NCBI GenBank assembly: GCA_018713795.1
Contig: DVOE01000010.1
Location: 4,014 to 68,013 of the forward strand
Source of the DNA: Candidatus Limadaptatus stercoripullorum
Lineage (GTDB): Bacteria; Bacillota; Clostridia; Christensenellales; CAG-917
Length of the DNA: 64,000 nt
Direction of reading: 5' to 3'
The translations under genes and the position numbers were made by a program. The notes under the pieces were generated by a model that was not told where the DNA came from, did no database searches, and saw only the letters and a list, made by a program, of their open reading frames with translations. Positions 6,901-48,121 of the stretch are shown one piece after another (the stretch's first letter is position 1; every line of letters begins with the position of its first letter).

Positions 6901-7000
6901 AATAATTCGCCCGAAAGGTGTAACCTTTTGGGGCGTAGAGCGTTTTATTGGTGTAATGCCGGGTGGCATGACATAGAAAGAGATCACACGGGAGGGCAAA

Positions 7001-10284: not shown

Positions 10285-10365
10285 GAGCGTTTGCGGGAAT
10301 GCACGGGGGGAGCGCGGCGACGCTCCCTCTTTGATTTGAAAGAAGGGGGAAGGGGAGAAGAACAT

Positions 10366-21802: not shown

Positions 21803-21831
21803 TTGACTACCGGCGCGAGGTAGGGTAAAAT
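21803..21831 (+). promoter_or_regulatory. SigA-type promoter of the giant ORF
   Basis: TTGACT (21803-21808), exactly 17 nt of spacer, TAAAAT (21826-21831). The predicted leader is about 60 nt and ends in AGGAGG (21885-21890), 6 nt before ATG 21897. Confidence 0.55.
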
Positions 21832-21896: not shown

Positions 21897-21968
21897 ATGA
21901 GAAAACTGAAGATCGCTTTGCTCATCGCACTGATATTGTGCCTTGTTTGCGGCGTGCTGGTCGCTTGT
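21897..21968 (+). other. Lipoprotein signal peptide (SPase II) of the giant protein
   Basis: MRKLKIALLIALILCLVCGVLVA-C: a basic n-region, a hydrophobic h-region and lipobox L-V-A-C with Cys24. A Pro/Gly/Asp-rich tether follows (DPIGKDPGAPDTPGGPGDPEVPDSG). Confidence 0.8.
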
Positions 21969-33900: not shown

Positions 33901-36900
33901 ACTACGACAGCGATGTCGAGACGGGCGAGAGCGCGCTTTACGCCGACCTCACCTGGCTGCTCGGCGCGGGCGCGAAGGTCAAGATCGACATGTCCGCCTA
34001 CTCGCTGCAGGATCTTCTGAACTCGAAGGGTCTGCTCGGCGGTCTCACCGGCGCGACAACTTCCGCGGAAGGGCTGGCTGCGGCGAACGAGGAAGCGGCG
34101 AACATCAAAAATCCCGACACGGCGTCGGTGCTGCTCAGTCTCACCACCCGTAAGATAGCGCTTTCGGTCAGCGCGGGCTTCGTGCGCCTGCTGATCGGTC
34201 TCATCGCGCCCGACGCGGCGGAGACTGTGGAACAGCTGCTGCCCAATGTGACGGCGGAAGTGGGCATAGGTCTCGCGCCTTACGCGCTCGGCATAGACCT
34301 CACTCTGCACGACGAGAGCGGCGAGTTCGACATCCTCGGCATAGGCATCAAGCTCAACCTCTTCGACGCGAGCGACAAGACCACCTCGCTGAGGCTGGAT
34401 CTCGGCGCGACCGAGGACTTCCACGAGCTTGACGCGGATCGTCTCGCGGCGATGTCCTCCGACTATATCTTCTATCAGGCGATGTTCACGCCCATCCTCG
34501 GCGACGACACGCCGGTGGGCGGTGAGGCGACATACAGAGCGGAGGCGCCCGGCGCGAACGAAAAGTCGTTCGAACGGGTGTACGGCAACACCGACGGCTC
34601 GTTGCTTTACAGGCTGAACGACGAGGCGACCTACTCGCTCGTCGGCGAAGTCTTCTACTCGTACGCACGCGCGGACTACTATAACCGCTACGCGATGGTG
34701 CCCGCGGGCTTCGAGGCTCTGACTCTGACGGTGTACACCAAGAGCCTGAACGACAAGGGCGAGCCCGTTTACAGCGTGTACGAAGGCGCGATCGGGGAAG
34801 CCGAAGAGGATCTGTATATCCTCGTGAACGACGAATATCAGGTGTTTGATCCTGCGACCGTCGCAAGCGGCGGATATTGGTTCTACACCTACGATTACGC
34901 GACCGGCACTCCCGCGATGACGCCGTACACCGAAGAGGCGTATGCGGAGTACATCAAGGCGATCACCGCTCAGACCGACAAGGCGAACGCGGGCGAAGGG
35001 ATCTATAACCTCGTCTACGACGCATCGGAGCTCGGCGCGAAACTCTATATCTACACGGGCGAACTCGCGGGCGACGATCTCACGGCGCACATCGCGGATA
35101 GCGCAAACTACACCGTGCCCGTCTACGACACCCTCGGCGCGCACAAGAGGAGCGTCGGGTTCGCGGGTTACAACGAGCTCATGGCGCTCGACCTCGACAA
35201 GCTCATAAACGGCGGCGGGCTGCAGGTAAGCGACCTGGCGTCCATGCTGACGGTGGAGGACATCGAGCTGACGCTGTCGCTCGACCTCGGTCTCGAGTTC
35301 GGCGAGATCATCAACTGGACTCAGCAGATGACCGAGCTGCTCGCGGTGGAAGGCGAGGCGGCGAACTACTTCAAGTTCCTGTTGCAGGCGGCGACGCTCA
35401 GCCAGGCTGAATTCCTCGCGTACATCGGCGGCGAGCTGACCCTGACCGCGTACATCAAGGGCGAGAGCGTGAAGAATGCGCTCGCTTCGATGGGCGGCGC
35501 CGAGTCCGCCGACACCATGGCGCTCATCAAGGCGATGCTCGCGGGCGCGGAGATCTGCATAGAGTTCTTCTACGACACCAACTTCCACGGCGAGCCGACC
35601 GACGCGAGCGTGCTGACGCTGTGGGTGGCGTTCGACAAGGACGCCATGGCAAGCATCTACATCGACGGCGGCGGCTTTGCCGAGTATGCGGGTCTCGTTG
35701 ACACGAGCGGCAGCGGCGGCAACTTCTTTGACAAGATCAAGCTCGAAGGGCTGGATATCTTCTCGCTGCTCGCGCCCGCGGAAGCGAGCGAAGGCGTGGA
35801 AGGTCTCGGTTCCGCCGATCCCGAGGATGTGGTCGGGGACGAGATCCTCGGCACCGTCAACGACGGCAGCGGCGGCGACTTCGGCATGCTGCCCTCGAAC
35901 ATCTGGGGCTACATCAACATGATCCTCGGTCATCTGCTCATCGCCGACGACACCATCGGCATCGGGCTCGCCGAGAATCTTGTGGCAAACCTTATCGACA
36001 ACTTCATCGAGGACTTCTCGGGGCTTGAGTATCTGCCCAAGCTCTCGGTGTCCTACGACGCGGAGTCCAGCGGCATAGCCATCCTGCTCGGCGAACAGCC
36101 CACCGTCAAGGTCACGGTCGGCGTGCTGTCCGGCGGCGAATTCTACGGCACCAAGGACGAGGTGTGGGAGCTGCTCGCGAACGACACCAACGGCGTGGCG
36201 AACTACGGCATCACGAAAGAGAACTTCGACTCCGTCATCGGCGATCCCGTGCTGATCGAAGAGAACGGCGAGACGGCGACCGTCTACTTCCTCGCGGACG
36301 AAGAGTACGCCCTCGCGGCATACGCCTCCTCCGAGAATGTGTGGCTGGGCGACCGCTACAAGCTGGAAATCGACGACGCGGCGGCGGGCGAATATCACTT
36401 CCAACTCGTGGAGAACGCCCTTGACGGCGCGTTCACGCAGCGTAACGACGGCGCGTTCGTCCAGCTGGACGAAACGGATGTCCAAGGCAAGTTCTCGTCG
36501 AGATTCGGGTCTCAGGCGACCGGCTACATTTCCTACGAAGCGGGCGACTATGTCGCGCTGACGACCTATCTCAGGGTGACGGGCACGACGAGCGTGGACG
36601 AATCGCGCAGGTACGCGTTCGACGAGACCATGGTCAAGGACGGCGCGCACTTCATGAAGCTCGGCGACCTCAAGCTCACCATAGAGCTCGGCGACCTCGG
36701 TCTGAAGGTCGGGCAGGGCGCTTCCTCCAACCCCGCGCCCAAGGGCGACGAGGAGTACAGGGACATAATGAAGGAAGGCGGCGTGCGCATCAGCACCTCG
36801 ATCGATGTCAGCTTCTACGGTGCAGAGGGCGAGATGGTCGACCTCGGCAGCGTGCTCGACTTCATCGTCGGACTGCTGAATGTCTCGGGCGTGAGCGGCA

Positions 36901-39900
36901 ACGACCTCAGGCTCAACATCACGAGCGCGCTCGGCTATCCCGACAGCCCGTACTTCAATGTCGCGCTTGACATCTACGCCGATCTGCCCAAGCTGCTCGG
37001 CGCGCTGCTCGGCGGCGGCGACGGCGAGGCGAAGATCTCGAACGCGCTCCAGCTCGCCCTCGAGATCAGGCAGTACGAGCCTCAGGATGGCGGCGGCTAC
37101 GAGCTCGGCGAAAAGGCGCTCATCGGCGTGTATCTTGCAAATGACACGCTCTACGCCGACCTCAGCGCGCTGCTCGGCGACACCGCCAAGATCAGCATAA
37201 GCGGGCTGAACATCATCGACCTTATCATGAACTCCGCGAGCGCGGAGACTCCCGCGGAAGGGGAGACTCCCGCGGAGACCACGGCGGAAGGCTTCGCCGC
37301 GGGCATCGCGGACATCCTCGGCGCGACCAGCCATGACTACGCCTACATCGGCGCGCTGGTCAACCCGGGCTATATCTGCATCCAGCTCACCATGGCTGCC
37401 GTGGAAGCCATCCTCGGCAAGGTCTCCGAGAACATGCCCGAGGCGGGTCTGCCCGACGAGCTGCTCGATCTCGGCGACATCATCCTCGAGTCTTACGGCT
37501 CCCGCAAGGACGGCGACATGCTGTCCATCGGCATCAAGCTGACCGACGGCTTCGCGGCGCAGCTCGCGATCGAGGGGCTGTATCTCGGCACCGAGTCCCT
37601 GACGGACACGCTGCCTGTCTTTGACGGATACCTCAATGTGTTCGACATCGGCAGCGGCGAACTCGGCGAGACGCTGACCATAGGCGCAAAGGCGCAGATC
37701 GCGCTCAGCATGACCTCCACGGGTCTCAGCCGCGACGATCAGAGCAACTTCAGCGTCATAGACACGGCGGCGGAAGCCAAGGAGTACGGCGGCAAGCTGT
37801 ACACTTCGGCGAGCACCACGGCGCTGTGGGCGAATTGGGACGCGGCGGACAAGGACGCGCTCATCGACGAGTACTACAAGACCGGAAGGCTTTACAAGAG
37901 CATTTACGACACCTCTCTCGCGGGCTGGGCGGTGGATCTCATCATGGGTCTGCTCGGACCTTCGCTCGAAGAGATTCTGGGACCCGTCAGCTCCGAGATC
38001 GTCAATGTCACCTTCGCGAACGAGGACCTCAACCTCGTCATCGACCTGACCGCCGACCTCAACATAGCCGCGATCATGAAGTTCGGCATCGCCGGCATCC
38101 TTTACAGCGACCTAGTCCTGGATGTCCGCCTGTCCGACTTCAACCGCAGCCTGCTCAAGGCGTACTATCTCGGCTCGTCGAGGCTGAGCAAGAGCGACAA
38201 CTACTACACTCTTGGCATGGACGCCTCGGGCGCGTTCGCGGATTCCATCTATGTCGACCTCAGCGGCCTCGGCTTCGGCACGATCAAGCTGTCCGGCATA
38301 ACGGGTCTGCTCGGCGGCACGACGGGCGGCATCTATGATGTCATGCCGGAAGGCGCCTCGGCAGCGGACGAGACCTCGGAAGGCGCCGAAGGCACCGAAG
38401 GCACGACCGAAGGCACCGAAGGCGGGCTCAACATCAGCGGCCTCAGCCTCACCATCAACCTCTCCAACGACGCCGTCGGCATCAAACTCGAAGAGAGCGT
38501 CATCGAATTCCTCTTCGGCATGATCGGCGGCGAGATCGCGGGCTACATCCCCGACATCCAGTCGCTCGGCCTCCAGCTCAACTTCGGCGACACGGGCATC
38601 CAATCCCTCGCCGTCGACGCGGTCCTCGACGAAGCGGGCACGGGCTTGCAGCTCTCGATAGACAACATCGAACTCGGACTCGGCGGTCTCATCTCCGACG
38701 CCGAGATCGAGGAAATGATCAAAGAAGTCAGCGAAGGCTACGGCGGGCTCGCCATGTCCAATACGGCGGGCATCATGACCATGCTGCAGAACATAATCGA
38801 CACCGCGGCTGTCAACCTCAACATCGACATCGACAAGAGAGGTCAGTACTTCGCGACCAACGGTTATAACTCGGTCGGCAGCAGGAATGAGCTCGGTCAG
38901 CTCACGCTTTACAGCAGCCGTATGAACGCGACCATGGACGCGGGCGGCTGGCTCGGAGACAACTACTGGAACGGTGCGCGTCGTCTGCTCCTCAACCTCA
39001 ATGTCGCGAGCACTCACAGCGGCAGCCGCTCGATAGATGTCTGGTTCGGCACCAACGATCAGTGGGCGCAGAACAATGTCTACATCACCGGTCTCGGCTC
39101 GCTGCTCGAGGGCGGCGCCTTGGGACCTCTGCTCACATGGGTCGCCGAGAACCTCGGTGTCATCAATCTCGCGGGTCTCCTCGGAAAACCGCTCATACCC
39201 CCGCTCGCGGGACAGGGCGCGGACACCGGCGTGTGGACGGAGCCCGAGGGCTCTTCCGCGGCTGAGACTGCCTCCGCTGCCGAAGAGAGCGGCGCGGAAG
39301 CCACCACCTCCGCGGTGACCGCCGACACCACCGGCGGGACCTACGGCGGCAATCAGGGGAGCTTCCACGCCTATGCCGGCAACGACATCACCGCCGCGCT
39401 CAAAGGCATAATCGAGAAGCTGGAACTCAACCTCTTCACGGACAGCGGCTACATGCCGTACATAGCGGGCGGCACCGCTCCCGGCGCGGGCACCGATCCC
39501 ACGCAGTTCATCTCCATCAAGGTTACGCTGGACAAAGTGGCGTACAACGAGCTGCTCATCTATCTCTACACCATGATCCTCGGCTTGCTGCAAGGCACGG
39601 GCACCGAGGGCGGCGCGGTGGACAGCGGCTCCGGCGTCGACTGGGGCGGTCCCAGCGACGATAACGCTTGGTACTTCGTTGACGGCACCGACATCCAGGA
39701 CAACGCGCTGAAGCGCCATGCGGCAGCCGACGGTAGGCACAACGACCGCATGTACATCATCTCCAACCTGTTCAGGGAACTGGAGGCGATACAGGCAAAG
39801 GGCTACACCACCGAGGCGGGGCGCAAGGCGCTCGTGCAGGAGCAGATCAATGTGCTCGAGCCCTATGTCCGCTCCATGCCCTTCGCGCTCGCGCAGTGGC

Positions 39901-42900
39901 TGATCTTCAACATGTTGTGGAACACCCTCAGCGGCTTTAGCTTCGCGCTCGGTGCGCTGGATACGCTGTTCAACAACCTCGGCTATGTCATAGGCGACCT
40001 GCTGCCTCCGTTCGCGGATATGAACGACAGCGTGGCTTCGCCTTCGCTCAACATCTACATCGACCTGAATCCTCAGGGCAGCATGTACGGCGTGGGCAAC
40101 AAGGTCGTGGCTGCGGGCATCCAGGCGCTCGAGCTCATGGTCAACTGCACCAAGAACGAGGGTGACTACGGCGAGACCGTGCGCGCCTCCGCAAGCAGCG
40201 GCGCGTCGTCCGTCGCGAACATCACCGACGCCTATGTGCTCGCCATCAATCCGCGCAACCTCAAGAACGGCACCGAGACCTCTCTGCAGGGACAGGGGCT
40301 GCTCAGTCTCGCGGAAGTCGAAGCCACCGCGATAAGCGCGCCCGCGAGCATACTCGTCAGCGATCCCGGCAAGCGCACCGCGACGATCATGAGCGGCGCC
40401 GACGGCACGGGTGAGCAGCGGGGGAGCGGCGTGCTCAACAGCACTCTGTTCACCGAGAGCAACGGCTTTGCCGTCACCGCGGATGTGACGGTCATCAACG
40501 ACACCGGCTACCGTGCGCCCAATGTCGGCGCGAACGGCATAGAGAGCTGGGGCACTACGAGCACGCGTGCGACGCAGCGCGTCGACATCGTCTGGGACGC
40601 CTCTTCCGTCGATCTCGTGGCGGCGACCAAAGCCACCGCGAATGATAACGGACTGCGTCTTGCGGGTCATGTCTACGGCTACGCGCTCAACGAAGTCGTG
40701 GCGATCGTGCCCGTCTATCTGACCAACGATTACGCCGTGTCCACCGTTCAGGCTTATGTCAACTACGACGATCCGGACGGCGCAAGGAGCACGCAGGAGC
40801 TCACTCTCGACGCGTCGAGGGCGAACGCCACCTCGCTGCCCGACATCATCAGCGTCACTTTCGAGAACGACGTGAGCTATCTCTTCGGCGAGGCGCTGAA
40901 GGACCCCGTGTCCGGCGAAAGCTATCAGGCGATCAGGCCCTCGGCGAACGGTCCGTTCAAACTTGACGGAGCGAGCTACGAGGGCGTGACGGTCACGGAT
41001 GAGGAGACCGGCGAGTCCACCACCACTCCGACCCTCTATCCCGCCTACAAGGCGCATCTCGTCGAGGTGGCGGACGGCACCGCGGGCGCGGTGGAAGTGG
41101 ACGGCAAGTTCTACAAGAGCGTGACCTACGAGAACGCCACTTATCTCGTCATCCGTGACGGGGTGACGCGCGGGTTCCCCGTGGGCGAGTTCTCGTGGGA
41201 CGACACCTCCTTCGGCTGGGACGGCGGCGTGCAGCAGGTGGAATTCTCCTTCAGCTGGGGCTACGCCACCGAGACCACCTTCACGGCGGATATCACCGTC
41301 GTCGAAAACCGCGTGACTTCGGTCACGGCGGCGGCGCTCGGCGACTACGCGTCCTTCGTCGAGAACACGGACGGCGCGACCGTCATCGCGCTCGACCTCG
41401 ACGCGCTGCTTACGGGGCGTGAGGTCAGCGAGTATAAGCAGATCATCCTCGACTTCGTCGGCGGGCTGAATTCGGTCACCGCGCGCCTTGGCGTGGACGG
41501 CGAAGCGCAGCTTGCGGCGAAGTGGGATGTCACCGCTCTCGAGGCGGCGATAGACGCGCTCGCGGTCAAGGACGCGAACGGCAATGTCACGAGCTACAAC
41601 TTCTATCTCGGCATCACGGCGGGGGTGACGGCTTGGCTCGGCGGCAGCGAGGCGACGGGCACGAGCGGCAGGGAGTTCTATGCCTCCGGCGTGTTCAACG
41701 GCGAGGGCAGCACGGATGAGCGGTACGCCGACAAAGGCTTCATCGCTCAGGCGCATCCCGTCACCGTGCTCGTTTACAGCAATGTCGTCTCCGAGGTCTC
41801 GTCCGATCTCACCTTCGATCCGTATGCGGCGGCGTCCGTCACCATGGATCCCGACGACTTCCTCGGAAAGTCCGTCAGCGTCGAGCTCTCGGACGGCACC
41901 GTGAGGTCGCTCGACATAGAGAAGGAGGAGAGCAGCGACGCGCTGACGCCCGTCGGCATCTATGTCATGAACGGCTCGCTCATGCCCGTGTGGGACGGCA
42001 AGGGTGAGGAGCCCGCAGCCTATGTCACTTCGAAGCAGCTCATGCGTGAGATCAGCTTCGAGGGCTACTCCGGCGTGTACGGCGACATCTTCCTCAGGGT
42101 CAGCATAGGCACCGACATCGTCGTCAAGCAGACCGTCGATCTGCCCGTGACCGTTTTGGCGGCTGCGGCGAACGACAACCGCTACGACATCAGGAGCTCG
42201 GGCAGGAGCTACGCACGCGACTTCCTCGGCAACTTCGTGCACAAAGAGAAAGGGGCGGCGGAAGGCTCCTGGACTGCGGGCGGCGAAATGTTCGACGATC
42301 TGCAGTATCAGAACAACAATTACTACAACATCGAAGTCATGTGGGACAGCGCGCTGTTCTACACGAACACGAGCTACAAGGACGAGGTCAAACTTGCGGA
42401 TCTCGCGGCGGGCAAAGACTATTACGCGATCGTGCCCGTCGTGAGGAATGAGGGTGGCACCGAGTTCGCGACTCAGTACGAGCGTGACGAGAAAGGCAAC
42501 ATCCTCTACTACGACAAGGACGGCAACCTCGTCGCGGCGGACAAGGGCAACCCGAGCCCCGTCTATCAGACGGTGAAACTCTGGTTCACCCTCGATGGGA
42601 CCGGCGTCTACCCCGAAGAGGACAGCATCATCCGCGTGACGAGCGGAGAGTTCGACGCGGGCTTCGCCTTCAAGGACAAGAACACTCTGCCCGATGAGTC
42701 GCTTGTCGACTGGATCATCGCGAACAAGAACGGCGGGAACTTCGAGTTCACCTTCAAGGACGGCACCGACTCCGATGTCACCGTCTCTGCCAATATCGCG
42801 AATATCAAGCTCGGCGACTACGAAGGCAGGAAGAACACCTCCGTCAAGGTTGTCGCGGGCGAGGGCGGCTACGACAATACCGTCACCTACACCTTCACCG

Positions 42901-45725
42901 GCACCGCTGACGGCAAGACCTACACCTTCACCGGCAGCACGCATATCAACATCGTGAGCACCTTTGTGGCTCCGCCCGAGCCCACGGTGACCGACGCGAC
43001 CGTCGATGACGCGCGCTTCGCGCCCGTCACCGTCGATCCGCTGGTGTACGCGAGCTTCGACGAGTTCCTCGCCGCCTTCAAGGCGAAGTACGCGAAGAGT
43101 GCGATCTACGCGACTGCAGACGGCGAAGAAGTGCTCGGCACCTTCTCGTCGCTCACCTTCGGCAATGTCGGCTACGGCAAGGACAACGCGGCGGCGCTCC
43201 CGCTCGCGGGCGGCAGCTACTCCGTGTCGATCAACTTCACCGACGCGGCAGGTAACAGATACCGCGCGACCGTGCCCGTCACCATCCTCGACCGCACTCC
43301 CGCTTCCTACGAGTTCGTCTTCGAAGGCTTCGAAAAGACCGTGACGCGCGGCGAGTTCGGCGCGAGAGAGATCGTGACTTATTGGAACGAGCTGACAGGC
43401 GCGACGCTCACCGTCGAGACCGGTCCCGACGGGCTGCCCACGGTGCTCACCGTGCTCAACCCCTTCGCCTTCGATTGGGCGACCATCTTCGGCAGCGGCA
43501 GCGGGCTTAAGATCACCACCGCGGACACCGGCGAGCAGTTCGTGCTCTCGGCGGCGGATCCCTTCGCGGCAGGCGCCTTCGAAGGCTACACGGTCGCCGC
43601 GGGCTACACGAGCGAAGCCCTGACCATCACCTTCGGAAACGGCGGCGCGACCTTCGCGATCACCGTCGAGTTCGTGGTCGAGCCGACCGCGCTCAATATG
43701 TACAACACCGACCTCGCCTCCGACACGCTGGCGTACAACGAGCTCAAGCTCAACGCTTCCGTCTACGGCTTCGAGAGCCTTGACGGCAAGGTCGTGCCCA
43801 GCCTCTACGATCTCCTCGACGCACCCACCGAGTTCGTGTGGTATGTCGACGGCATGTTCGTCGCGGCGGCGCGCGAGACGGAGTACACCACCGGCATGGG
43901 CTACACCGCGCTCGGGGACGAGAACGGCACCTACCGCTACAACTACAGCCGCGGCGCTTACAAACGCGTTAGCGGCGGCGAATTCGTCTTCGTGTACAGC
44001 GCGACGGCGAAGCTCACGGCAGAGTGGAACCACTCCGCGGTCATCTACTCCTTCGCGGGCGGCGTGAGGAACACCTCCGCCACCGTCAAGGCGTCCGGCA
44101 CCGCGGGCGACATCTCGCTCTCCGTGTCCGTGCCCGTCAACATCTACAACTCCGAACTCGCGACCATCGCGTTCAAGACATCGAGCTACGACTTCTTCGG
44201 CGATCTCGTCGCGAAGTACACCGTGGGCGAAGACGGCGTCACCAAGACCTTCGTGCAGGGTAACGCGGGCGGCAAGTACGACTACTTCGTCGACATGACG
44301 AACATGAGGGTCTACTTCCTTGCCGACGGCGGAAACAACTATGTCGACCTCAGGACCGGCGAGTTCTTCTTCGATCCGATGAGCGGCATAGACCTCTTCG
44401 AACAGGTCACCGTGTCCTCCGCCATAGGTCAGAGGACGGTTTACAGGTGGTTCCCGCTGCAGGTGTCCGCAGTGACCAAGGGCGGGCTCACCAACTCCGC
44501 TCTCTTCGTCGGCTGGAACCTCGGCGGCGTCGCGTTCGACTACGCGGGCGGTTCCTTCACCGCGGCGATCGTCCTGAGAGAGACCGAGATGAACGGCGGC
44601 ACCAACACCGTCGGCGAGCAGCGCTTCACTCCGGACGAACTTAACATCACCGTCAAGAACAGGACCGCGACCGCGGCGATCACGACGGATACTGCCACCG
44701 GCTACGCTACGCTCAGCGCGCTCACCGGCTTCGCGGGCAATGGCACCTTCATCGATCCGTACAACTTCGATATGGCGGTGTTCAGGCGCTCGGTCACCGA
44801 CATCGGCGCGATAGCCTTCACGCTCGGCGATGGCAACTACACCTTCTCCAAGGACGGCGCGAACGGCTACACGCTGGGTTGGGACTTCACGGGATTCGGC
44901 GTTACCTACACGGGCGGCATCGCGGAACTCACCGCGCTGCTCACCGGACCCGACGGCTCCACTCAGCGCTTCACCTTCGACTTCCTGGTCACCCGCGTCC
45001 ATATCAGCCGGATCGTGGGGAAGAAGGGCGGCGCGATCGGCATGGGCGTGAACACCACCTTCTCGGTCTATGCCGCGAACGACGGTTCGACGAACATCGG
45101 CATGGCGCAGGGCACCTACAGCATCGACCCGCACATCCCGCAGTCGCACAGCCTGCCCAAGGGCTGGGAGATCAGCTTCAATGCGTGGAACCCCGTTTAC
45201 GCGAACGGCGCGCTCACCGGCGAATGGAGAGGCACGAACTACGAGACTGTCACAAGGGATTACATCGCGGTCTCCATGCCCGCGTTCGACTGGGCGGCGG
45301 ATCTCGTCGAGAACGGCAGCGACGGCTCGCTCGGCTACGCGACCCTGCAGCTCGACAACGGACAGAGAGTCAGGATACCCGTCGCCGTCACCGGAAAGGG
45401 CGGTTCCCTCACCGTGAGCGGCAGCTTCTACAGGCAGCAGGGCAACCTCCTCGAGCTCGACACCAAGGCGACCATAAACGGCAAGCAGTACACCATCGTC
45501 TGGGTGGGCACCGCGACCGTGTCGGGCGGTAGCACTTACAATGTCACCTTCGCGTCCGCGGGCGACAAGTACATCGTCCAGCCCAAGGGGCTCAGGAAGG
45601 TCACTTACAACCTCACCGGCTATGTCGGCGCGGTCATCGACGAGAGCGGCAATGTGCTCATCGACGGTGATTCCGGCACTCCGTGGTACCTCGCCACGAC
45701 GAGCGCGTCCGGCACCGTCAACTGA
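21897..45725 (+). CDS. Giant (7,942 aa) acidic, N-terminally lipid-anchored surface protein of unknown family
   Basis: Single stop-free frame of 23,829 nt with a good RBS, a promoter and a downstream terminator. It has the same third-position G/C bias as its neighbours and an SPase II signal with lipobox LVAC. The internal architecture is conserved (mega-repeats, acidic linkers, C-terminal beta-sandwich-like modules). No enzymatic or known adhesin motif was recognised. Confidence 0.9.
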   Translation: MRKLKIALLIALILCLVCGVLVACDPIGKDPGAPDTPGGPGDPEVPDSGIRSVSSSQAYAAFKEAALNVYAGNYYNFSTTIGLDYIKDKYGRYFAVKIQAAIDPEEDANSEMLVELWRMNEAGGEETLLLGLYYFDGTIVYDCTGIKKGAQVVKTEDLDITAIAKAVDKALGGTSVGQLLLDNLLGIELGDLGSVERILTALFAPTSRAVVAADGTVEYQIPINLASVLGLVGGLIAPDGLLGDYSDLILTIGNVLGIDLGKLSDLDTTSTAIYLVATVGKDAQGQPLLVSGPVLEVGMDFNTSGGAGSEIMESELDVSVGITEIQAGTAPVLNLETYLVSERGYDLDELTEYSPLTLELSLDLDLDLKEHSFEIQTILGALGGLLGDVSVPEALKTLNIDIAEDTSLTLGIKISAEINMRDPAGTNAVIDITGTDGALRGRVAYIGAERSLYADLTGILGRNAKVKITDFDLNAFLSEQIDSLLVTINEALAGLTGDDQAASQAEYDAAKALVDEGEIVKHYVASSSDDEPATLDTIGLIMAILENIDVDMNGDIFNIEGIGVTLTKQIINSIVNLISPGATLPLMGDVALNYSNPGFGETKELTISGLAIGVDDGSGTGAIKTLAEVGLGIGIRLGTFADDAGFRAAIEDIATADANHEYAALLTFDQLLDTDSIVIGDILANVGTVSVDLSLGIDIDAIGGEFLDFTYGNSDFLIAVLAAFAEEGLDVGATLKLSADVDLAALLTTDATGALALNAAGLLTGANLYLALIGGDGTAALEVWLNGGVAYLHTTLLGGFDIKVDIGQFFSASGQSEASALAAANEGEESGFDIASILALLGGVGVGDTYIDVYLAAFTLSELFETLGVSLGDVGISLIDPDGEESSITGGVKIELGDGLNLGEAGISVYLGLGEGADIELSLGGFGAGIGSNAGAIIPEDRKADFVDILSEPYLYLHLNAGLEASIKQQGISLGEELGDIVIGSDIDIDYSFDIEAFVDLRPIVGSLLGTDYPAANDTQIVVKLAKNEGGTGEEEVLLGVYYKDGRAYLDLAVLGIAPASIELDLMQLITGQALAGVEPLAGSQAYAADGGTGGNDVKTAVQLALEIGTDGLTVTLVQGLVELLVQYVAGLEGMEIDALLNIDWSEAAEDLLALEVGLTDASGNALADLALTVGGIELALGKALGDGVAMTTMPEDDVLAGMTSLGSVVGDEYQLIEKVADAQAYAGNLFRKDPVLEVYTMFKLADGIALRYAKGEKLYIAVAGENGATSYKEATLAEAQAAPAVFVDAEGKTAFTMADAIALEYENGGVLYSNAVQFALTMPAVHVEFAGEITLGVDPDTGATEWTIGSWITNFLKEDSDINGDGSADAADAALYGFISALLLEFNLVDEAMVTIGLNLAANLRFNPDDVEDIAYILGHSDISLVVTGTDAAGSTETLLGLYIVANEQDNTSTLYLETKEGGLLSGLKIKVPGLDLGTLAGSLFAGGEEGGAEGQALASSSDDGSESGGTDILGVIEGVIAGAIYSIIVDNQGVTVNFASAMVAYVLTLIPSLGLPDAVADPDGFAAFAESFVELNPARSYLSVLVGDNAGGLGGNLALELGLGIDPVYLGIALGGLSVGFAGEGESAEPVFGDGSVSEQEYFADFVNFYEIDALSIGATAKLDLTLKSGELELGSMLDILIGEALVAFGVDIPEDLRLSAEVFIGANISVSDPDKTQVVLELRDGISGTVVFGAYLDGATLWIRGGELPIGNVRIENTGFAALIGGVITDLLSSVTASGSAEALAAAEGDTYASNDALAVFFELAKDRIALSITETFLVALISAVTATPDGDPADTDIAGIIERLGLDAEVNVGVDFSTFTIDIGLESNLLDLGISIVEPTVGMTPNEDVSNAIAALAAGDSFTSYPATSTRVGATVDLSLSLGLSEGELTLSDLLGIILDIDSVKNGIAGLQGDAGKILGTLLNALGLELVIAEGRVAADIGIHISALLDLKELGSYAPVDRDYAVQNLGSRNFVVYDAENDTFLKFTGTTAADVDAVYNEGGTLYAVDGLADKILSGDFESIFTYTEIDKANAAPGETYILDEDGVYGALTPAEGQTFAEAVEAYGGTLYSRSVEISLDALLAALEANVKLTVNDRLVDIYLADGQLYLDLGGFDGPKVSIDLMWLIDMISKATTTAEGMAADGADGAPAEASVLDTVLSLLNSVIKRVSLGTAISDVGGNLLAGGLGANITLGADVLSAVLGQLIGTEITTSELLLAEDATLRLKLQPQDEGRGLLELAVGAVLQDGVRLDLGLGAGLDITLASPVRTLIDEETRASFTDITPAIESILALVNGTAADPDAAAQPVKFSIMGRVYFDADGEANYELGGTVNSLLGSLLSVYINDLYVDLGIKDGVSAGLGFRLTAGLDLAELAKIDLDACKDENGALDAKKFVVALLKGVPSLKIALELIELDENLEFATYTADEAKGGYVTEGDYKAMAGIYIQNGNLYLNGTNIFGVADNYTQVPGFTTFVAEAIEDTPEETGKEEGTEATTSAEAYSSADGTVRDALLQALLSSEGLKIVATKSILSLLIATLMPDLGSLTDIFDQLDVFVELDTGDTALFLGVGAVLGANGATQSLGLELGAIKIEVGADAESSVVPAFITAGKTPDGKESVPLAPFYDSVISLSTSVEFELGITEGVLDFGGFLEDIVGDIGGVTIEMPETAKGYSSAHLRLDLYIMLNMYDLAQSELYIELYNLSNEAGAEVLWLGAYYSGMTVYLDLSFFGLPRISAPLNEISGLIDEYLGDLLDSSIFDTVVVPSAPAESEGLAADEQSEEADITSVQDKVASLVISERRLALHVGNYLMRYILSAFDIGGITLADLIYENLYGELDIEIYYGESLNVEIGARLALEGDRYVPVELTTEKNIDDVKAEIAALEKDENAAEEAGYYTFEKGEDGKYALTSDGEYRLLGTSETNPNNEGYIAPADRYVGTKLTSSSDITVGTTVYKWKDGDELNMSAYDAELDLSLGIKNFELGFVTEHQPILSGSELEQYMDFNAAETVSLSETLSLDLLLREGADIDLAGLLGYLFEGTSEDIVAIISAAAANGGDLNRHIDLVIAVEFRLGAFLNYMRSLAAQYPLMYSATFGQVRDTLLTLGDEVDLLTFVGAIMSVVGAKVPDASGNIYYEDAEADDLVGLEDLLEFVNASVRIVTNGDPVTVNGEQVVPMHDILGVYFVGGEFREATAEDRANGEQLYSHFFRSQSGAYAYDSATGSIRLISDIEGTYDPDELYGYDASYMYPVAAGDNHNKGTHVREDAGLYVDLSYLGQPSIYIALSELQNFVGDLMSETDASAQALAAGGTDAAASADEDDAPPTISLGNIAGSLPLLGDQIASYVTAFLYGIRMTSTFIQVLVDSNYLNSLLGILLGEDDLLPEMTEQSSLTINTDVNNYEYFYATDATNEQLMYSDSRFHINIDDENGVYYLSDDDRLELRSRMTESEAAAYQERVDAGTANYYTITAIDLYLNVEGEYVSFDEASNADWRDAERYTSVKVQASDALGVTEAFIGTYVYYVANEDGGYDELDYTYDTSAYDGEEVFVIYPSEDRNPLIELEVYLWEYKIGIAINLPETGALDYTYRVATPEEVEAGIGLYAEGDEYVYELAAEALAERENAFVYFRGKYFPLDGNLYKYEDGKYNKHDGGYDLGGSYAVACREEGFVYYVPVTADKHYERVAYGAVYTAVTGDRTQGSTYYVREEAAATSVSYPEMFVDFSKSYANASAAGITANLYYEYSAVEDAWVRLGGSGIESDHEKGIYRGDEILHTWDPDAGSFVSYKDYQAAHGRVPSHVFIAEPINYVDSAELYTISLALRGSLSISGCENYVTLEDYKKLTGDPVPEGTTRYNLDEVSGEYVEAADGKYVKVVGSMNAISDILSGIMGDMRSMLVIGENYSAEILFEIKAKVSYDFGDANTPGNEAAGADTLWITEIDLAIDTWIRQSSDNRLRHFIGLYYDSDVETGESALYADLTWLLGAGAKVKIDMSAYSLQDLLNSKGLLGGLTGATTSAEGLAAANEEAANIKNPDTASVLLSLTTRKIALSVSAGFVRLLIGLIAPDAAETVEQLLPNVTAEVGIGLAPYALGIDLTLHDESGEFDILGIGIKLNLFDASDKTTSLRLDLGATEDFHELDADRLAAMSSDYIFYQAMFTPILGDDTPVGGEATYRAEAPGANEKSFERVYGNTDGSLLYRLNDEATYSLVGEVFYSYARADYYNRYAMVPAGFEALTLTVYTKSLNDKGEPVYSVYEGAIGEAEEDLYILVNDEYQVFDPATVASGGYWFYTYDYATGTPAMTPYTEEAYAEYIKAITAQTDKANAGEGIYNLVYDASELGAKLYIYTGELAGDDLTAHIADSANYTVPVYDTLGAHKRSVGFAGYNELMALDLDKLINGGGLQVSDLASMLTVEDIELTLSLDLGLEFGEIINWTQQMTELLAVEGEAANYFKFLLQAATLSQAEFLAYIGGELTLTAYIKGESVKNALASMGGAESADTMALIKAMLAGAEICIEFFYDTNFHGEPTDASVLTLWVAFDKDAMASIYIDGGGFAEYAGLVDTSGSGGNFFDKIKLEGLDIFSLLAPAEASEGVEGLGSADPEDVVGDEILGTVNDGSGGDFGMLPSNIWGYINMILGHLLIADDTIGIGLAENLVANLIDNFIEDFSGLEYLPKLSVSYDAESSGIAILLGEQPTVKVTVGVLSGGEFYGTKDEVWELLANDTNGVANYGITKENFDSVIGDPVLIEENGETATVYFLADEEYALAAYASSENVWLGDRYKLEIDDAAAGEYHFQLVENALDGAFTQRNDGAFVQLDETDVQGKFSSRFGSQATGYISYEAGDYVALTTYLRVTGTTSVDESRRYAFDETMVKDGAHFMKLGDLKLTIELGDLGLKVGQGASSNPAPKGDEEYRDIMKEGGVRISTSIDVSFYGAEGEMVDLGSVLDFIVGLLNVSGVSGNDLRLNITSALGYPDSPYFNVALDIYADLPKLLGALLGGGDGEAKISNALQLALEIRQYEPQDGGGYELGEKALIGVYLANDTLYADLSALLGDTAKISISGLNIIDLIMNSASAETPAEGETPAETTAEGFAAGIADILGATSHDYAYIGALVNPGYICIQLTMAAVEAILGKVSENMPEAGLPDELLDLGDIILESYGSRKDGDMLSIGIKLTDGFAAQLAIEGLYLGTESLTDTLPVFDGYLNVFDIGSGELGETLTIGAKAQIALSMTSTGLSRDDQSNFSVIDTAAEAKEYGGKLYTSASTTALWANWDAADKDALIDEYYKTGRLYKSIYDTSLAGWAVDLIMGLLGPSLEEILGPVSSEIVNVTFANEDLNLVIDLTADLNIAAIMKFGIAGILYSDLVLDVRLSDFNRSLLKAYYLGSSRLSKSDNYYTLGMDASGAFADSIYVDLSGLGFGTIKLSGITGLLGGTTGGIYDVMPEGASAADETSEGAEGTEGTTEGTEGGLNISGLSLTINLSNDAVGIKLEESVIEFLFGMIGGEIAGYIPDIQSLGLQLNFGDTGIQSLAVDAVLDEAGTGLQLSIDNIELGLGGLISDAEIEEMIKEVSEGYGGLAMSNTAGIMTMLQNIIDTAAVNLNIDIDKRGQYFATNGYNSVGSRNELGQLTLYSSRMNATMDAGGWLGDNYWNGARRLLLNLNVASTHSGSRSIDVWFGTNDQWAQNNVYITGLGSLLEGGALGPLLTWVAENLGVINLAGLLGKPLIPPLAGQGADTGVWTEPEGSSAAETASAAEESGAEATTSAVTADTTGGTYGGNQGSFHAYAGNDITAALKGIIEKLELNLFTDSGYMPYIAGGTAPGAGTDPTQFISIKVTLDKVAYNELLIYLYTMILGLLQGTGTEGGAVDSGSGVDWGGPSDDNAWYFVDGTDIQDNALKRHAAADGRHNDRMYIISNLFRELEAIQAKGYTTEAGRKALVQEQINVLEPYVRSMPFALAQWLIFNMLWNTLSGFSFALGALDTLFNNLGYVIGDLLPPFADMNDSVASPSLNIYIDLNPQGSMYGVGNKVVAAGIQALELMVNCTKNEGDYGETVRASASSGASSVANITDAYVLAINPRNLKNGTETSLQGQGLLSLAEVEATAISAPASILVSDPGKRTATIMSGADGTGEQRGSGVLNSTLFTESNGFAVTADVTVINDTGYRAPNVGANGIESWGTTSTRATQRVDIVWDASSVDLVAATKATANDNGLRLAGHVYGYALNEVVAIVPVYLTNDYAVSTVQAYVNYDDPDGARSTQELTLDASRANATSLPDIISVTFENDVSYLFGEALKDPVSGESYQAIRPSANGPFKLDGASYEGVTVTDEETGESTTTPTLYPAYKAHLVEVADGTAGAVEVDGKFYKSVTYENATYLVIRDGVTRGFPVGEFSWDDTSFGWDGGVQQVEFSFSWGYATETTFTADITVVENRVTSVTAAALGDYASFVENTDGATVIALDLDALLTGREVSEYKQIILDFVGGLNSVTARLGVDGEAQLAAKWDVTALEAAIDALAVKDANGNVTSYNFYLGITAGVTAWLGGSEATGTSGREFYASGVFNGEGSTDERYADKGFIAQAHPVTVLVYSNVVSEVSSDLTFDPYAAASVTMDPDDFLGKSVSVELSDGTVRSLDIEKEESSDALTPVGIYVMNGSLMPVWDGKGEEPAAYVTSKQLMREISFEGYSGVYGDIFLRVSIGTDIVVKQTVDLPVTVLAAAANDNRYDIRSSGRSYARDFLGNFVHKEKGAAEGSWTAGGEMFDDLQYQNNNYYNIEVMWDSALFYTNTSYKDEVKLADLAAGKDYYAIVPVVRNEGGTEFATQYERDEKGNILYYDKDGNLVAADKGNPSPVYQTVKLWFTLDGTGVYPEEDSIIRVTSGEFDAGFAFKDKNTLPDESLVDWIIANKNGGNFEFTFKDGTDSDVTVSANIANIKLGDYEGRKNTSVKVVAGEGGYDNTVTYTFTGTADGKTYTFTGSTHINIVSTFVAPPEPTVTDATVDDARFAPVTVDPLVYASFDEFLAAFKAKYAKSAIYATADGEEVLGTFSSLTFGNVGYGKDNAAALPLAGGSYSVSINFTDAAGNRYRATVPVTILDRTPASYEFVFEGFEKTVTRGEFGAREIVTYWNELTGATLTVETGPDGLPTVLTVLNPFAFDWATIFGSGSGLKITTADTGEQFVLSAADPFAAGAFEGYTVAAGYTSEALTITFGNGGATFAITVEFVVEPTALNMYNTDLASDTLAYNELKLNASVYGFESLDGKVVPSLYDLLDAPTEFVWYVDGMFVAAARETEYTTGMGYTALGDENGTYRYNYSRGAYKRVSGGEFVFVYSATAKLTAEWNHSAVIYSFAGGVRNTSATVKASGTAGDISLSVSVPVNIYNSELATIAFKTSSYDFFGDLVAKYTVGEDGVTKTFVQGNAGGKYDYFVDMTNMRVYFLADGGNNYVDLRTGEFFFDPMSGIDLFEQVTVSSAIGQRTVYRWFPLQVSAVTKGGLTNSALFVGWNLGGVAFDYAGGSFTAAIVLRETEMNGGTNTVGEQRFTPDELNITVKNRTATAAITTDTATGYATLSALTGFAGNGTFIDPYNFDMAVFRRSVTDIGAIAFTLGDGNYTFSKDGANGYTLGWDFTGFGVTYTGGIAELTALLTGPDGSTQRFTFDFLVTRVHISRIVGKKGGAIGMGVNTTFSVYAANDGSTNIGMAQGTYSIDPHIPQSHSLPKGWEISFNAWNPVYANGALTGEWRGTNYETVTRDYIAVSMPAFDWAADLVENGSDGSLGYATLQLDNGQRVRIPVAVTGKGGSLTVSGSFYRQQGNLLELDTKATINGKQYTIVWVGTATVSGGSTYNVTFASAGDKYIVQPKGLRKVTYNLTGYVGAVIDESGNVLIDGDSGTPWYLATTSASGTVN
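22278..39190 (+). repeat. About 15 highly diverged protein-level mega-repeats (roughly 260-780 aa each) within the giant ORF
   Basis: A recurrent closing motif of the type hLhGhYh..G..hYhDL....G...h.I....h..Lh occurs at about 22278, 23214, 24234, 25002, 26208, 27087, 28320, 29349, 30153, 31557/31821, 33882, 35613, 37113, 38151 and 39027. Each is followed by an acidic Ala/Glu/Gly/Thr/Ser linker and then an amphipathic strand-helix segment. Confidence 0.75.
40330..45725 (+). repeat. C-terminal array of divergent beta-sandwich (Ig-like?) modules in the giant ORF
   Basis: About a dozen segments share the pattern ..h.W[DN/G].....h.Y.GG....h.h.h. Examples: VDIVWDASSVDL, FSWDDTSFGWDGGVQQVEFSF, AKWDVTALEAAI, IEVMWDSALFY, LTAEWNHSAVIYSFAGG, FVGWNLGGVAFDYAGGSF, YTLGWDFTGFGVTYTGG, YTIVWVGTATVSGGSTY. 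Alternating-polarity strands lie between them. The fold assignment is inference. Confidence 0.5.
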
Positions 45726-45753
45726 CGCGCTTCCCGCGCGAACGAACAAAAGG

Positions 45754-45781
45754 CGCGCCCCTTCGGGGGCGCGTTTTTTTG
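45754..45781 (+). terminator. Rho-independent terminator of the giant gene
   Basis: 8-bp all-GC stem CGCGCCCC / GGGGCGCG with a 4-nt loop, followed by T7. It starts 29 nt after the stop codon. Confidence 0.8.
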
Positions 45782-45803
45782 TTCGGACGGGCGCTCCCGC
45801 CGC

Positions 45804-45832
45804 TTGCAAAACGCGCGGGCGGCGCTTATAAT
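45804..45832 (+). promoter_or_regulatory. SigA-type promoter of the AEC transporter gene
   Basis: TTGCAA (45804-45809), 17-nt spacer, TATAAT (45827-45832). Confidence 0.55.
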
Positions 45833-45856
45833 TGTAGGCACGAAGGAGGGCAGTCT

Positions 45857-46891
45857 ATGGAGTTCGGCACCACCGCGGTAACCGTGTTGCTGCTTGTCGC
45901 GATGGCTATCCCGGGGTTCATCCTCGTCAAAGCCAAAGTTATCAAGCCGCACGCGATATCCTATTTCTCGGCGGTGCTCCTTTACGCCTCCCAGCCATTC
46001 CTCTCCATACGCTCGTTTTTGCAGGCGGACTACACCCCCGAGCTCGCCGTCAACCTCGGCATAGTCTTTCTCTTCTCGCTGCTCGCGCAGGGGTTGCTTT
46101 TCGGCGTCCTCTGGGCGATCCTCGCGCGTAAGTTCGACGATCCCGCGGACAGCAGGCGGCTGCTCGAAGAGGGATTTTTGGCTCCGCACGCCGCGATAAA
46201 GGATGAGGGGCTCGCCGCGCTGGCGTCAAGGTGCGCGAAGGGCAGGGCGTGCCGCGTGTTCGTGCTCGCCGCGACTTTCGGCAATGTCGGGTTTTTCGGC
46301 GTCCCGGTGCTGCAGATGCTCTTTCCGCTCGCCCCCGAGACCATCGCCTATTCCGCGGTGTTCATCGTGTCCATGAACCTCATGTGCTGGACGCTCGGCT
46401 CCTATCTCCTCACCGGCGACAAAAAGTACATCAGCCTCAAAAAGGCGATCCTCAACCCGCAGATGATCGCCCTCATCATCGCGCTGCCGCTGTTTTTCAC
46501 CGGAGTGACTTCAGACGATCTCCCCGACGCCGTCAACAAGGTGATAAGTTTCCTTGCGGACATGACCGCGCCGCTTTGCATGATCATCCTCGGGATGCGC
46601 TTCGCCGTGGCGCCCGTGCGCGAACTGTTCACCGACATCAAGGTGTACATCTCGGTGTTCATCAAGGTGCTGGTCTTCCCGCTCGCTGTCTACTTGGTGC
46701 TTTTGCCGTTCAAGTCCATGGACGAGATGATGAAGATCTCGCTCGTCATCCTGAGCGGTATGCCCTCCGCTTCCATCAACCTCAACCTCGCCGAACTCTA
46801 CGGCGCGGATCAGAAGACCGCCGCGAACAACATCCTTCTCTCCACGCTGCTCTCCATCCTCACCATACCGCTCATCATGCTGTTGTTCTGA
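45857..46891 (+). CDS. AEC (auxin efflux carrier) family membrane transporter
   Basis: GAAGGAGGG RBS precedes ATG 45857. About 10 TM helices arranged in two halves with a central hydrophilic loop. The C-terminal SGMPSASINLNLAELYGAD is typical of AEC/Mem_trans proteins. Confidence 0.78.
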   Translation: MEFGTTAVTVLLLVAMAIPGFILVKAKVIKPHAISYFSAVLLYASQPFLSIRSFLQADYTPELAVNLGIVFLFSLLAQGLLFGVLWAILARKFDDPADSRRLLEEGFLAPHAAIKDEGLAALASRCAKGRACRVFVLAATFGNVGFFGVPVLQMLFPLAPETIAYSAVFIVSMNLMCWTLGSYLLTGDKKYISLKKAILNPQMIALIIALPLFFTGVTSDDLPDAVNKVISFLADMTAPLCMIILGMRFAVAPVRELFTDIKVYISVFIKVLVFPLAVYLVLLPFKSMDEMMKISLVILSGMPSASINLNLAELYGADQKTAANNILLSTLLSILTIPLIMLLF

Positions 46892-46926
46892 GCGGCGGCG
46901 TAGCCCCGCGCGAGTTACTTTTTCCG

Positions 46927-46954
46927 TTGATATTGCGCGCGGTTATGCTATAAT
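46927..46954 (+). promoter_or_regulatory. SigA-type promoter with extended -10
   Basis: TTGATA (46927-46932), 16-nt spacer ending in TGC, TATAAT (46949-46954). About 30 nt upstream of the RBS of the SPFH gene. Confidence 0.55.
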
Positions 46955-46986
46955 GTTAGAGCAAGACCATCCCTTAGGAGGCGAAA

Positions 46987-48111: not shown

Positions 48112-48121
48112 GGGCGGAGGC

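Follow-up and report, generated by a model that had tools for sequence, protein, structure and literature searches.

The question raised by this locus is what lies at the far end of a very large predicted surface protein, and whether that end would be free to meet the outside of the cell. The locus is found in a 64,000-nucleotide stretch of contig DVOE01000010.1 from Candidatus Limadaptatus stercoripullorum (the whole of this stretch is called the window), in which a giant open reading frame (ORF) encodes 7,942 amino acids (aa). The tail studied here is the 3' quarter of this ORF (21897..45725, + strand). In the original prediction, made from the sequence letters alone, it was described as an array of Trp-marked, beta-sandwich-like modules without a C-terminal wall anchor, at the free end of a molecule tethered by an N-terminal lipid. 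By following this up, it could be shown, at the level of predicted models, that the last ~1,800-1,900 aa consist of immunoglobulin (Ig)-like beta-sandwich modules in a chain, about 14-17 in number, which are old and have diverged from one another. We consider it reasonably probable that the protein is a ~7,900-aa surface fibre with a lipid anchor and that nucleotides (nt) ~40030-45722 encode its stalk and tip, exposed at the distal end. An anchor-less Ig-like array ending a giant surface protein is a known and expected design; what is new is the family, rare and without annotation, whose lipid-anchored members are about 7,900 aa in length.

Predicted fold and boundaries of the tail

AlphaFold2 (AF2) was run on two family alignments, one of aa 7020-7942 (24 sequences) and one of aa 5825-7024 (30 sequences). 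The structural output consisted of secondary structure, the predicted local distance difference test (pLDDT) and Foldseek matches; these are what the estimated number of modules and the predicted sandwich fold of each one rest on. The model of aa 7020-7942 (m36f21e7d4f38, mean pLDDT 73.8) was made of strands almost throughout, with a few short helices, while that of aa 5825-7024 (m08db60299d4c, mean pLDDT 66.9) had long helices at aa 5831-6035 and strands from aa 6050. The pLDDT reached 75-92 across aa 6224-6584 and was low across aa 6754-6934; for aa 6145-7942 overall, 43% strand and 9% helix were predicted at a mean pLDDT of ~72. All 13 peptides quoted in the original prediction were found, 0-14 nt from where it had placed them, and 10 of the 11 quoted segments fell on AF2 beta-strands, the exception being IEVMWDSALF at aa 6812, in a low-confidence stretch. 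Within the predicted strand pair, the Trp ends one strand and the GG lies in the turn ahead of the next.

When both tail halves were compared with PDB by Foldseek, the matches were chains of Ig-like domains, among them SbsB (4aq1, E 3e-8, prob 0.96-0.97). Other PDB matches included SbsC (5ftx), EA1 (8opr), Sap (6qx4), Sevenless, protocadherins, cadherins and alpha2-macroglobulins, as well as the large-adhesin extender 6xi3 and the Big_4-rich multidomain protein BbgIII (7nit, E 4e-6). In BFVD, agglutinin, 'Ig', cell-wall/surface-repeat and tail-fibre proteins were matched. The template modelling (TM) scores of these matches were about 0.1 and the sequence identity about 10%. The low TM-scores can be explained by differences in inter-domain geometry; therefore, the support is for beta-sandwich beads on a string and not for any single homologue. 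The claim of Ig-like/beta-sandwich modules is thus borne out by a strand-rich, multi-module AF2 chain whose Foldseek neighbours in PDB and BFVD are all Ig-like strings, and a structure prediction devoid of beta-sandwich modules, which had been named as the refuting outcome, was not obtained.

The tail and the segments leading into it were divided into the following blocks and modules.

39369..40031, + strand: transition domain, aa 5825-6045, predicted 45% helix by AF2, conserved in distant homologues
40032..40328, + strand: first beta-rich stretch, aa 6046-6144 (NIYIDLNP...), 43% strand by AF2 at low confidence (mean pLDDT 54)
40332..41648, + strand: proximal conserved beta block, aa 6146-6584 (VDIVWDASSVDL...GHVYGYAL, FSWDDTSFGWDGG...FSWGYATE), from AF2 and alignment
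41649..43001, + strand: variable-length middle cassette, aa ~6585-7035, from the coordinates of BLAST high-scoring segment pairs (HSPs); not BLAST-alignable to distant orthologues
43002..45722, + strand: distal conserved block of about 8 beta modules with a free C-terminus, aa 7036-7942, from AF2 and Foldseek
43914..44153, + strand: Big_4-like module, aa 7340-7419 (LTAEWNHSAVIYSFAGGVR...), from its hhalign link to aa 7621-7712 and a module hidden Markov model (HMM)
44409..44696, + strand: Big_4-like module, aa 7505-7600 (FPLQVSAVTKGG...FVGWNLGGVAFDYAGGSF...), whose equivalents in homologues P0027 and P0009 match PF07532
44757..45032, + strand: Big_4-like module, aa 7621-7712 (YTLGWDFTGFGVTYTGGIAELTALLTGPDGSTQ...), with invariant W, Y, GG, DG and Q and pLDDT 81-86
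45033..45722, + strand: terminal modules, aa 7713-7942, ending ...TSASGTVN, from motifs and alignment

The change of architecture ahead of these blocks is clear. The LY(A/L/V)DL..LG motif was found in 10 copies from aa 452 to 5451 and the acidic/Ala/Gly/Ser/Thr-rich linkers numbered 12 at aa 807-5924 (the last main one at 5768-5823 and a minor one at 5899-5924), with none of either afterwards. Weak internal repeats were confined to aa 100-5200 when tiles of the protein were compared with each other by BLAST, and self-BLAST of the whole protein returned the self-match alone. In the tail, Leu makes up 6.3-7.6% of the residues (12-14% before it) and Thr 10-12% (5-8% before it), Val is more frequent, and Trp reaches 1.39% (25 in 1,798 aa, or 25 of all 60 Trp) as against 0.57% (35 in 6,144 aa) upstream. 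The net charge per 100 aa is -10.7 upstream, -5.7 in the tail and -1.9 in the last 320 aa, and no Cys occurs beyond aa 6084, which counts among the signs of an exposed tail. The loss of the repeat grammar and linkers and the switch itself were therefore correctly seen in the original prediction; the position given for it, nt 40330, was too late, as it begins about 100-300 aa earlier. An array of shorter modules does follow, not of about a dozen units of 100-170 aa but of roughly 14-17 heterogeneous ones of about 60-145 aa. Likewise, the Trp strand paired with a Y.GG strand exists, and it is carried by only about 5-6 modules and not by each. The pattern W.{4,14}[YFVL].{1,3}GG occurred 6 times in the tail against 1.6 in shuffled sequences (6 was reached by 10 of 2,000 shuffles), and the Trp, Tyr and Gly-Gly columns of the strand pair were invariant or nearly so in the family alignments.

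Conservation is unevenly spread over the tail. In comparison with ~30%-identical orthologues, identity peaked at aa 6151-6300 (42-48%; for the wider span of aa 6151-6450 it was 37-48%) and was second highest at aa 7651-7942 (38-45% in three of four orthologues and 33-37% in P0034), and it was lowest at aa 6450-7050 and 7050-7650 (23-39%, with 23-34% at aa 6451-6600). In the proximal block, which reaches aa ~6470-6640 by BLAST against distant orthologues, Trp, Gly and Tyr columns are invariant throughout the family. The distal block is found at the extreme C-terminus in every full-length orthologue, with a BLAST-conserved span of aa 7038-7921, and the most conserved motif of the tail lies in its module at aa 7621-7712. 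The terminal modules, marked by the motifs IDP..P.SQSLP.GW, GYATLQL.NGQR.RIPV, VVW.GT and Y.LT.Y.GAV.D..GNVL, are 39-45% identical to those of the distant orthologues P0016 and P0017, as against 24-37% for aa 7051-7650. The middle cassette showed 34-75% gaps against distant homologues and, by HSP coordinates, a length of about 180 to 945 aa in orthologues compared with 467 aa here; these alignments showed a cassette that appears to gain and lose modules between species.

Recent tandem expansion of the modules was considered and rejected. No tandem or direct DNA repeats were present in 39300-45800, and an all-versus-all hhalign comparison of 19 rough modules gave no probability above 42%, for aa 7305-7419 against 7621-7712 (E 2.7e-4); the next-best links likewise connected modules bearing W..Y.GG. 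Judged from these comparisons, the module array is old and diverged.

Big_4 affinity and the homologue family

The specific family of the modules had been left unnamed in the original prediction. This can now be narrowed to a remote relationship with Big_4 (PF07532) for the subset of modules with the W-D...Y-x-GG pattern, the others being still unassigned. A PF07532 match was absent from the window protein at E <= 1. Among nine family members scanned singly, three had one, at best E 1.1e-5 and always below the gathering threshold: residues 4247-4292 of P0027, equal to aa ~7515-7560 here, scored 20.8 bits and residues 1020-1057 of P0009, the same module equivalent, 16.1 bits. The window protein and its best homologue therefore both fall short of the 22.1 bits of the Big_4 gathering threshold.

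The reciprocal search, in which the A4 family profile (aa 7036-7942) was run with HMMER against 1.84 billion representatives, did make the connection. It found P0122 (E 8.7e-10, in 9 stretches) and P0130 (E 2.2e-6), two non-family proteins which carry PF07532 at E 2e-29 and 4e-11, respectively. HMMs of aa 7340-7419, 7505-7600 and 7621-7712 each aligned repeatedly to the ~100-aa repeats of P0122/P0130, and that of aa 7340-7419 also to the repeats of P0117; a variant of the motif, 'KWDYSGVSDSYDGG', is present in P0122. The AF2 strand pattern and the Foldseek matches to Ig-like chains, 7nit among them, would agree with an Ig-like fold of about 60-100 aa for the Big_4-like modules, with the topology of each module at model level.

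Big_4 repeats are found on surface glycosidases and surface proteins of Firmicutes and Bifidobacterium (e.g. BbgIII, PDB 7nit), with which the pattern '(L/F)P..v.v....G....v.V.W(D/N)......Y..G(G)...a.v...' is shared. In contrast to those proteins, only about 3-5 of the ~15 tail modules show the signature and there are no tandem copies. The W-D...Y-x-GG pattern can thus be read as a divergent Big_4 signature, for which these profile comparisons support remote homology, with formal membership below threshold. At least the modules at aa 7340-7419, 7505-7600 and 7621-7712 were shown by profile alignment to be remote Big_4-type domains, and two W-marked modules in aa 6220-6480 probably are as well. 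The remaining modules are Ig-like domains outside any assigned family; in one of them the final strand pair, '...GGSYSVSINFTDAAGNRYRATVPVTIL', weakly resembles Big_13 (E 0.13-0.48).

The family itself is small. Tail relatives at E <= 1e-3 numbered 10 among 5.8 billion proteins and a profile of these led to 25 clusters, while the exhaustive HMMER search of the 1.84 billion representatives with the aa 7036-7942 profile returned 86 proteins. None of 31 homologues had a precomputed Pfam domain, and no family member in the collections searched had a name beyond 'hypothetical protein'. Seven orthologues are intact: P0051 (7,924 aa), P0053 (7,894), P0064 (7,881), P0054 (7,874), P0055 (7,662), P0080 (7,544) and P0052 (7,286). 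Aligned with the window protein, the full-length orthologues prove colinear over its whole length from the first residue to the last, with identities of 24-50%, and their C-termini stop, without an anchor, within a few tens of residues past Y.LT.Y.GAV.D..G.VL. Two relatives of 2,611 aa (P0004) and 1,611 aa (P0001) were rejected as shorter homologues, as they are pieces of broken gene calls.

The gene was present in three GTDB species representatives, all uncultured Clostridia/Clostridiales and one of them UMGS814. Synteny was seen on both sides of the gene in locus L008, where the giant protein is 50% identical to that of the window, and downstream in L003, where it is 24-28% identical. The intact colinear orthologues together with the synteny indicate a real and maintained gene, which by sequence comparison is single-copy and kept intact at a fixed locus in one clade. 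Nothing on this family was found in the literature on giant Clostridia lipoproteins, on Big_4/PF07532 or on UMGS814. The Clostridia giants described in a preprint (10.1101/2023.11.21.568195) are different ones, made up of RCC1, List-Bact repeats and dockerins.

Tether, selection and the role of the tail

Whether the tail would be a free distal end depends on what holds the protein at its other end, where two features were defined.

21897..21968, + strand: lipoprotein signal peptide MRKLKIALLIALILCLVCGVLVAC with lipobox L-V-A-C (residues 21-24) and Cys24, read from the sequence
21969..39368, + strand: N-terminal ~5,800 aa (aa 25-5824), acidic and Leu/Gly/Ala/Asp-rich, with motif and linkers, from composition and motif scans

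The protein starts MRKLKIALLIALILCLVCGVLVAC|DPIGKDPGAPDTPGG, with a basic n-region, a hydrophobic core and the lipobox, followed by a Pro/Gly/Asp-rich linker. Read from the sequence, L-V-A-C agrees with the pattern [LVI][ASTVI][GAS]C of bacterial lipoproteins (Lgt/Lsp substrates), and the signal peptide is the sole strongly hydrophobic segment in 7,942 aa in a Kyte-Doolittle scan. A lipobox ending in Cys is kept in 11 homologues, comprising all seven full-length orthologues and four N-terminal fragments (P0047-50, P0051-55, P0064 and P0080; one signal peptide, for example, is MRKVKFAFLFVLVLCLAAAVLVAC|NP). Lipidation of Cys24 is therefore predicted.

The region between the tether and the tail consists of about 10 large, weakly similar units, each with LLG.YY.DG.LY(A/L)DL..LG and, after it, an acidic/Ala-rich linker. 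Searches of Pfam, NCBIfam and PDB found no relative for aa 25-5824 (the PDB search covered aa 1-5000), and these N-terminal ~5,800 aa are probably the most novel part of the protein. An LPETG at aa 3618-3622 (window 32748-32762) lies mid-protein, without a hydrophobic or charged tail behind it, and the orthologues have LPETD, MPTTS, LPDTA or LPATG at this site. It was rejected as a sortase site, as the motif is not conserved, and it would be a chance or structural motif.

At the other end, searches for LPXTG, an SLH domain, a hydrophobic tail or an RTX motif came back empty, both for the tail and for the orthologues examined. The protein ends ...TSASGTVN with no hydrophobic segment past the signal peptide, so that it does not belong with sortase substrates, which have LPXTG, a hydrophobic segment and a positive tail. 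It does not belong with SLH-anchored S-layer proteins, since neither SLH nor CWB2 was matched in Pfam or NCBIfam, nor with RTX adhesins of the type I secretion system (T1SS), since GG.G.D is absent throughout the protein and no T1SS genes are among the neighbours examined. When the whole protein was searched in three pieces against Pfam and NCBIfam, noise alone (LIF-R_Ig-like, DUF7429 and Big_13) appeared at E <= 1. Sequence and profile searches of PDB, for which the queries were the tail, profiles A1 and A4 and residues 1-5000 of the protein, gave nothing reproducible, with 8bao and fibritin at E 0.6; a match of aa 7052-7118 to 5x5s 'Amylase' (E 0.006) was dismissed, as it was gone with the family profile, which had no PDB match at E <= 10. 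The absence of a C-terminal wall anchor, claimed in the original prediction, thus held in Pfam, NCBIfam, PDB and motif searches, here and in orthologues, and the other refuting outcome that it had named, a cryptic anchor or enzymatic domain, did not turn up in these searches or in the fold searches. The picture of an N-terminal lipid tether with a free distal end also extends to the family, in which both the lipobox and the anchor-free C-termini are kept.

The tail evolves faster than the rest of the protein, as was found when its conservation was compared with that of the repeat region. It also diverges much more rapidly than neighbouring housekeeping genes: in three relatives with MetRS identities of 98.6, 78.7 and 64.2%, the tails were 88, ~50 and ~26% identical. 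The ratio of nonsynonymous to synonymous substitution rates (dN/dS, by Nei-Gojobori) was determined for two metagenome-assembled pairs.

Window against L001: upstream 0.56; tail (aa 6145-7942) 0.97; tip (aa 7620-7942) 1.40
Window against L007: upstream 0.51; tail 0.84 (Fisher p = 0.005 on nonsynonymous and synonymous differences, Nd/Sd); tip 1.03 (p = 0.04)

The tail thus has a dN/dS of 0.84-0.97 compared with 0.51-0.56 upstream, and tip dN was about 3 times upstream dN against L007. Replacements between the window and the two close strains were more frequent in loops than in strands (9.1% versus 5.9%, p = 0.019; 12.3% versus 8.1%, p = 0.011), which gives independent support to the strand assignment.

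Three further patches stood out in these comparisons. At aa ~6348-6497 (window ~40938-41387), dS was 0.31 and dN 0.33 against L001, with flanking dS of about 0.05-0.15, and values against L007 were normal; this suggests that recombination has replaced the allele within a single module. Upstream of the tail, local dN/dS values of 1.5 and 1.9 against L007 were found at aa 3794-3994 and 4994-5194 (window ~33276-33878 and ~36876-37478), which may be further exposed or variable patches.

From these results a sequence of events can be proposed. The protein would be exported via Sec and then lipidated at Cys24, by which it would be held at the cytoplasmic membrane. Its ~5,800 acidic N-terminal residues would take the tail off the membrane and through the wall, and the Ig-like chain would serve as a stalk plus binding tip touching an external partner; candidates for this partner are a glycan from the host or the diet, a matrix component or another cell. 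Loop residues would differ between strains, with the strand cores and a few tip motifs kept. We infer that the C-terminal tail is the interaction end, which fits its fast evolution, the loop-focused substitutions and the conserved last ~330 aa.

Several points weigh against this stalk-and-tip reading. Low-confidence modelling affects about 20% of the tail, at aa 6754-6934 and 7270-7303, and the beta-sandwich topology of each module and the module count are model-level. A tail dN/dS near 1 reflects relaxed and/or diversifying selection, from two pairs with signs of recombination. A monoderm envelope is assumed, and the real reach of the tail depends on the fold of the N-terminal 5,800 aa, which has no relatives in the searches made. 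No ligand, binding pocket or known binding domain (carbohydrate-binding module (CBM), lectin or MucBP) was identified in the tail. The gene is also a single-copy syntenic core gene, which is less typical of accessory adhesins, and a structural role in the envelope fits this equally.

Such a role could be that of an S-layer-like canopy, in which the tail self-associates into a lattice or coat and the lipidated N-terminus with the acidic region replaces the SLH anchor. For each half of the tail, S-layer proteins (4aq1, 5ftx, 8opr and 6qx4) rank first or nearly so among the PDB fold matches, S-layer proteins evolve rapidly too, and a single-copy, syntenic core gene of the clade would suit this. 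However, Foldseek matches to cadherins, alpha2-macroglobulins and FN3 receptors were equally strong, at TM about 0.1 and about 10% identity; SLH and CWB2 domains are lacking, and a protomer of 7,942 aa is without precedent among S-layers, so that we consider a canopy unlikely. Another structural possibility is that the Ig-like chain is a passive spacer, giving length or stiffness or a steric, anti-phage or anti-immune shield, with the function residing in the N-terminal 5,800 aa. It would agree with a dN/dS near 1, as expected under weak constraint, with a middle cassette that freely gains and loses modules and with the lack of a recognisable binding domain. A pure spacer would not be expected to keep invariant motifs at 25-30% overall identity (GPDGSTQ, SQSLP.GW, GQR.RIPV, VDIVWDA and LAGYVYGYALN) or to have its best-conserved parts in the last ~330 aa and aa 6146-6450, and we regard this explanation as doubtful.

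Finally, a cryptic enzyme, toxin or wall-binding anchor could be hidden among the modules, in which case the C-terminus would not be a free Ig-like end. The poorly modelled stretches at aa 6754-6934 and 7270-7303 leave space for one, and the match to 5x5s was a single weak hint; against this, the hit was not reproduced by the family profile, Pfam and NCBIfam gave nothing at E <= 1 except Big_13 (E 0.13-0.48), and fold searches returned Ig-like chains alone. Such a hidden domain is very improbable. We keep the stalk and tip of a lipid-anchored fibre as the preferred reading.

Genomic setting and wider meaning

The remaining features around the giant gene are as follows.

21803..21831, + strand: sigma-70-like promoter-like site TTGACT-17-TAAAAT, 5' of the giant gene, a pattern match only from a consensus scan
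45723-45725, + strand: stop codon of the giant gene, read from the sequence
45754-45773: GC-rich hairpin after the stop, listed on the minus strand by the scan, with a palindromic stem

The genes flanking the giant gene are ordinary chromosomal genes. Upstream are an FtsH fragment, a Pst-type ABC transporter, two condensation-domain ORFs, a GH127-like protein, bPH_2, GH20 and PIG-L, and downstream are Mem_trans, SPFH plus zinc ribbons, a Zn-ribbon protein, an HTH-cupin protein, MetRS and histidinol dehydrogenase. The condensation-domain (PF00668) ORFs, at 7881-9185 and 10291-11652, are stand-alone with weak scores, and no adenylation or carrier domain adjoined them among the ORFs scanned. The mechanical Mem_trans ORF (45683-46891) has a GTG start that overlaps the 3' end of the giant gene; the gene calls in four relatives are of 344 aa, from which a start near 45857 is likely. 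There is a promoter-like site at 45804-45832. After the giant gene, an SPFH/Band_7_1 protein with multiple zinc ribbons is followed by a Zn-ribbon protein (window 45683-49216). This order was seen in all five loci covering the downstream region (L001, L002, L003, L007 and L008), even where the giant protein is only 24-28% identical, usually with Mem_trans between, and it may be mere clade-wide gene order, as metG, tatD and ksgA come next.

Two very long ORFs lie opposite the giant gene, one of 2,565 aa at 38112..45809 (- strand) and one of 2,999 aa at 28335-37334 (- strand). Both are in its in-phase antisense frame, and the first, which faces the tail, was rejected as a gene. The sense strand of the giant gene has only 4 TTA/CTA/TCA codons among 7,942, with 85% GC at third codon positions, and the same avoidance is found in neighbouring genes. 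The long antisense ORFs can be explained by the near absence of these codons; both are an artefact of codon usage and no gene. An origin of the tail from a mobile element or phage fibre was also unsupported, as no match to it turned up when collections of phages and plasmids were searched by tblastn.

The protein resembles the N-terminally retained RTX giant adhesins, which bind with their C-terminal end (MpIBP, LapA and SiiE), in having an N-terminal tether, a very long extender, Ig-like modules and an anchor-free distal C-terminus, and differs from them by the lack of GGxGxD and of T1SS genes nearby, by export through a lipoprotein signal and by its Clostridia host; their extender consists of near-identical BIg repeats, unlike the extender here. 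With the Firmicute S-layer proteins SbsB, SbsC, EA1 and Sap, its best bacterial fold matches, it shares surface chains of Ig-like beta-sandwich domains, but it lacks an SLH anchor, exceeds them about 10 times in size and is about 10% identical. Ebh/Embp and the LPXTG MSCRAMM-type adhesins have a C-terminal anchor (LPXTG or transmembrane) and an exposed N-terminus. Like them, which contain Ig-like or other repeat modules, the protein is a megadalton, Sec-exported, modular surface fibre with fast-evolving exposed parts; its polarity is reversed, with an N-terminal lipid anchor and a free C-terminus. A ~0.8 MDa protein held by lipid alone, in this reversed polarity, is unusual among Firmicute giant proteins.

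Giant surface proteins govern attachment, aggregation and recognition in gut bacteria, and this family has been invisible to annotation, with no Pfam or NCBIfam assignment across 7,942 aa. The present analysis sets its polarity, its Big_4-like affinity, the division of the tail into conserved blocks and a module-swapping cassette, and the faster, loop-variable evolution of the tail. Most of what is still new about the protein concerns its N-terminal 5,800 aa and the ligand of the tail, and aa 6146-6584 and aa 7620-7942 are concrete constructs for binding and structural work. More speculatively, and with little confidence on our part, the tail may be the outward business end of an undescribed class of envelope organelle: a lipid-anchored ~7,900-aa fibre, encoded by a single-copy core gene of uncultured gut Clostridia, whose other ~5,800 aa would have a relative-less fold and whose Big_4-like tip would act as an S-layer-like canopy or as a recognition surface that differs between strains through diversifying selection and could serve, for instance, in binding host glycans, in recognising kin or in evading phages.

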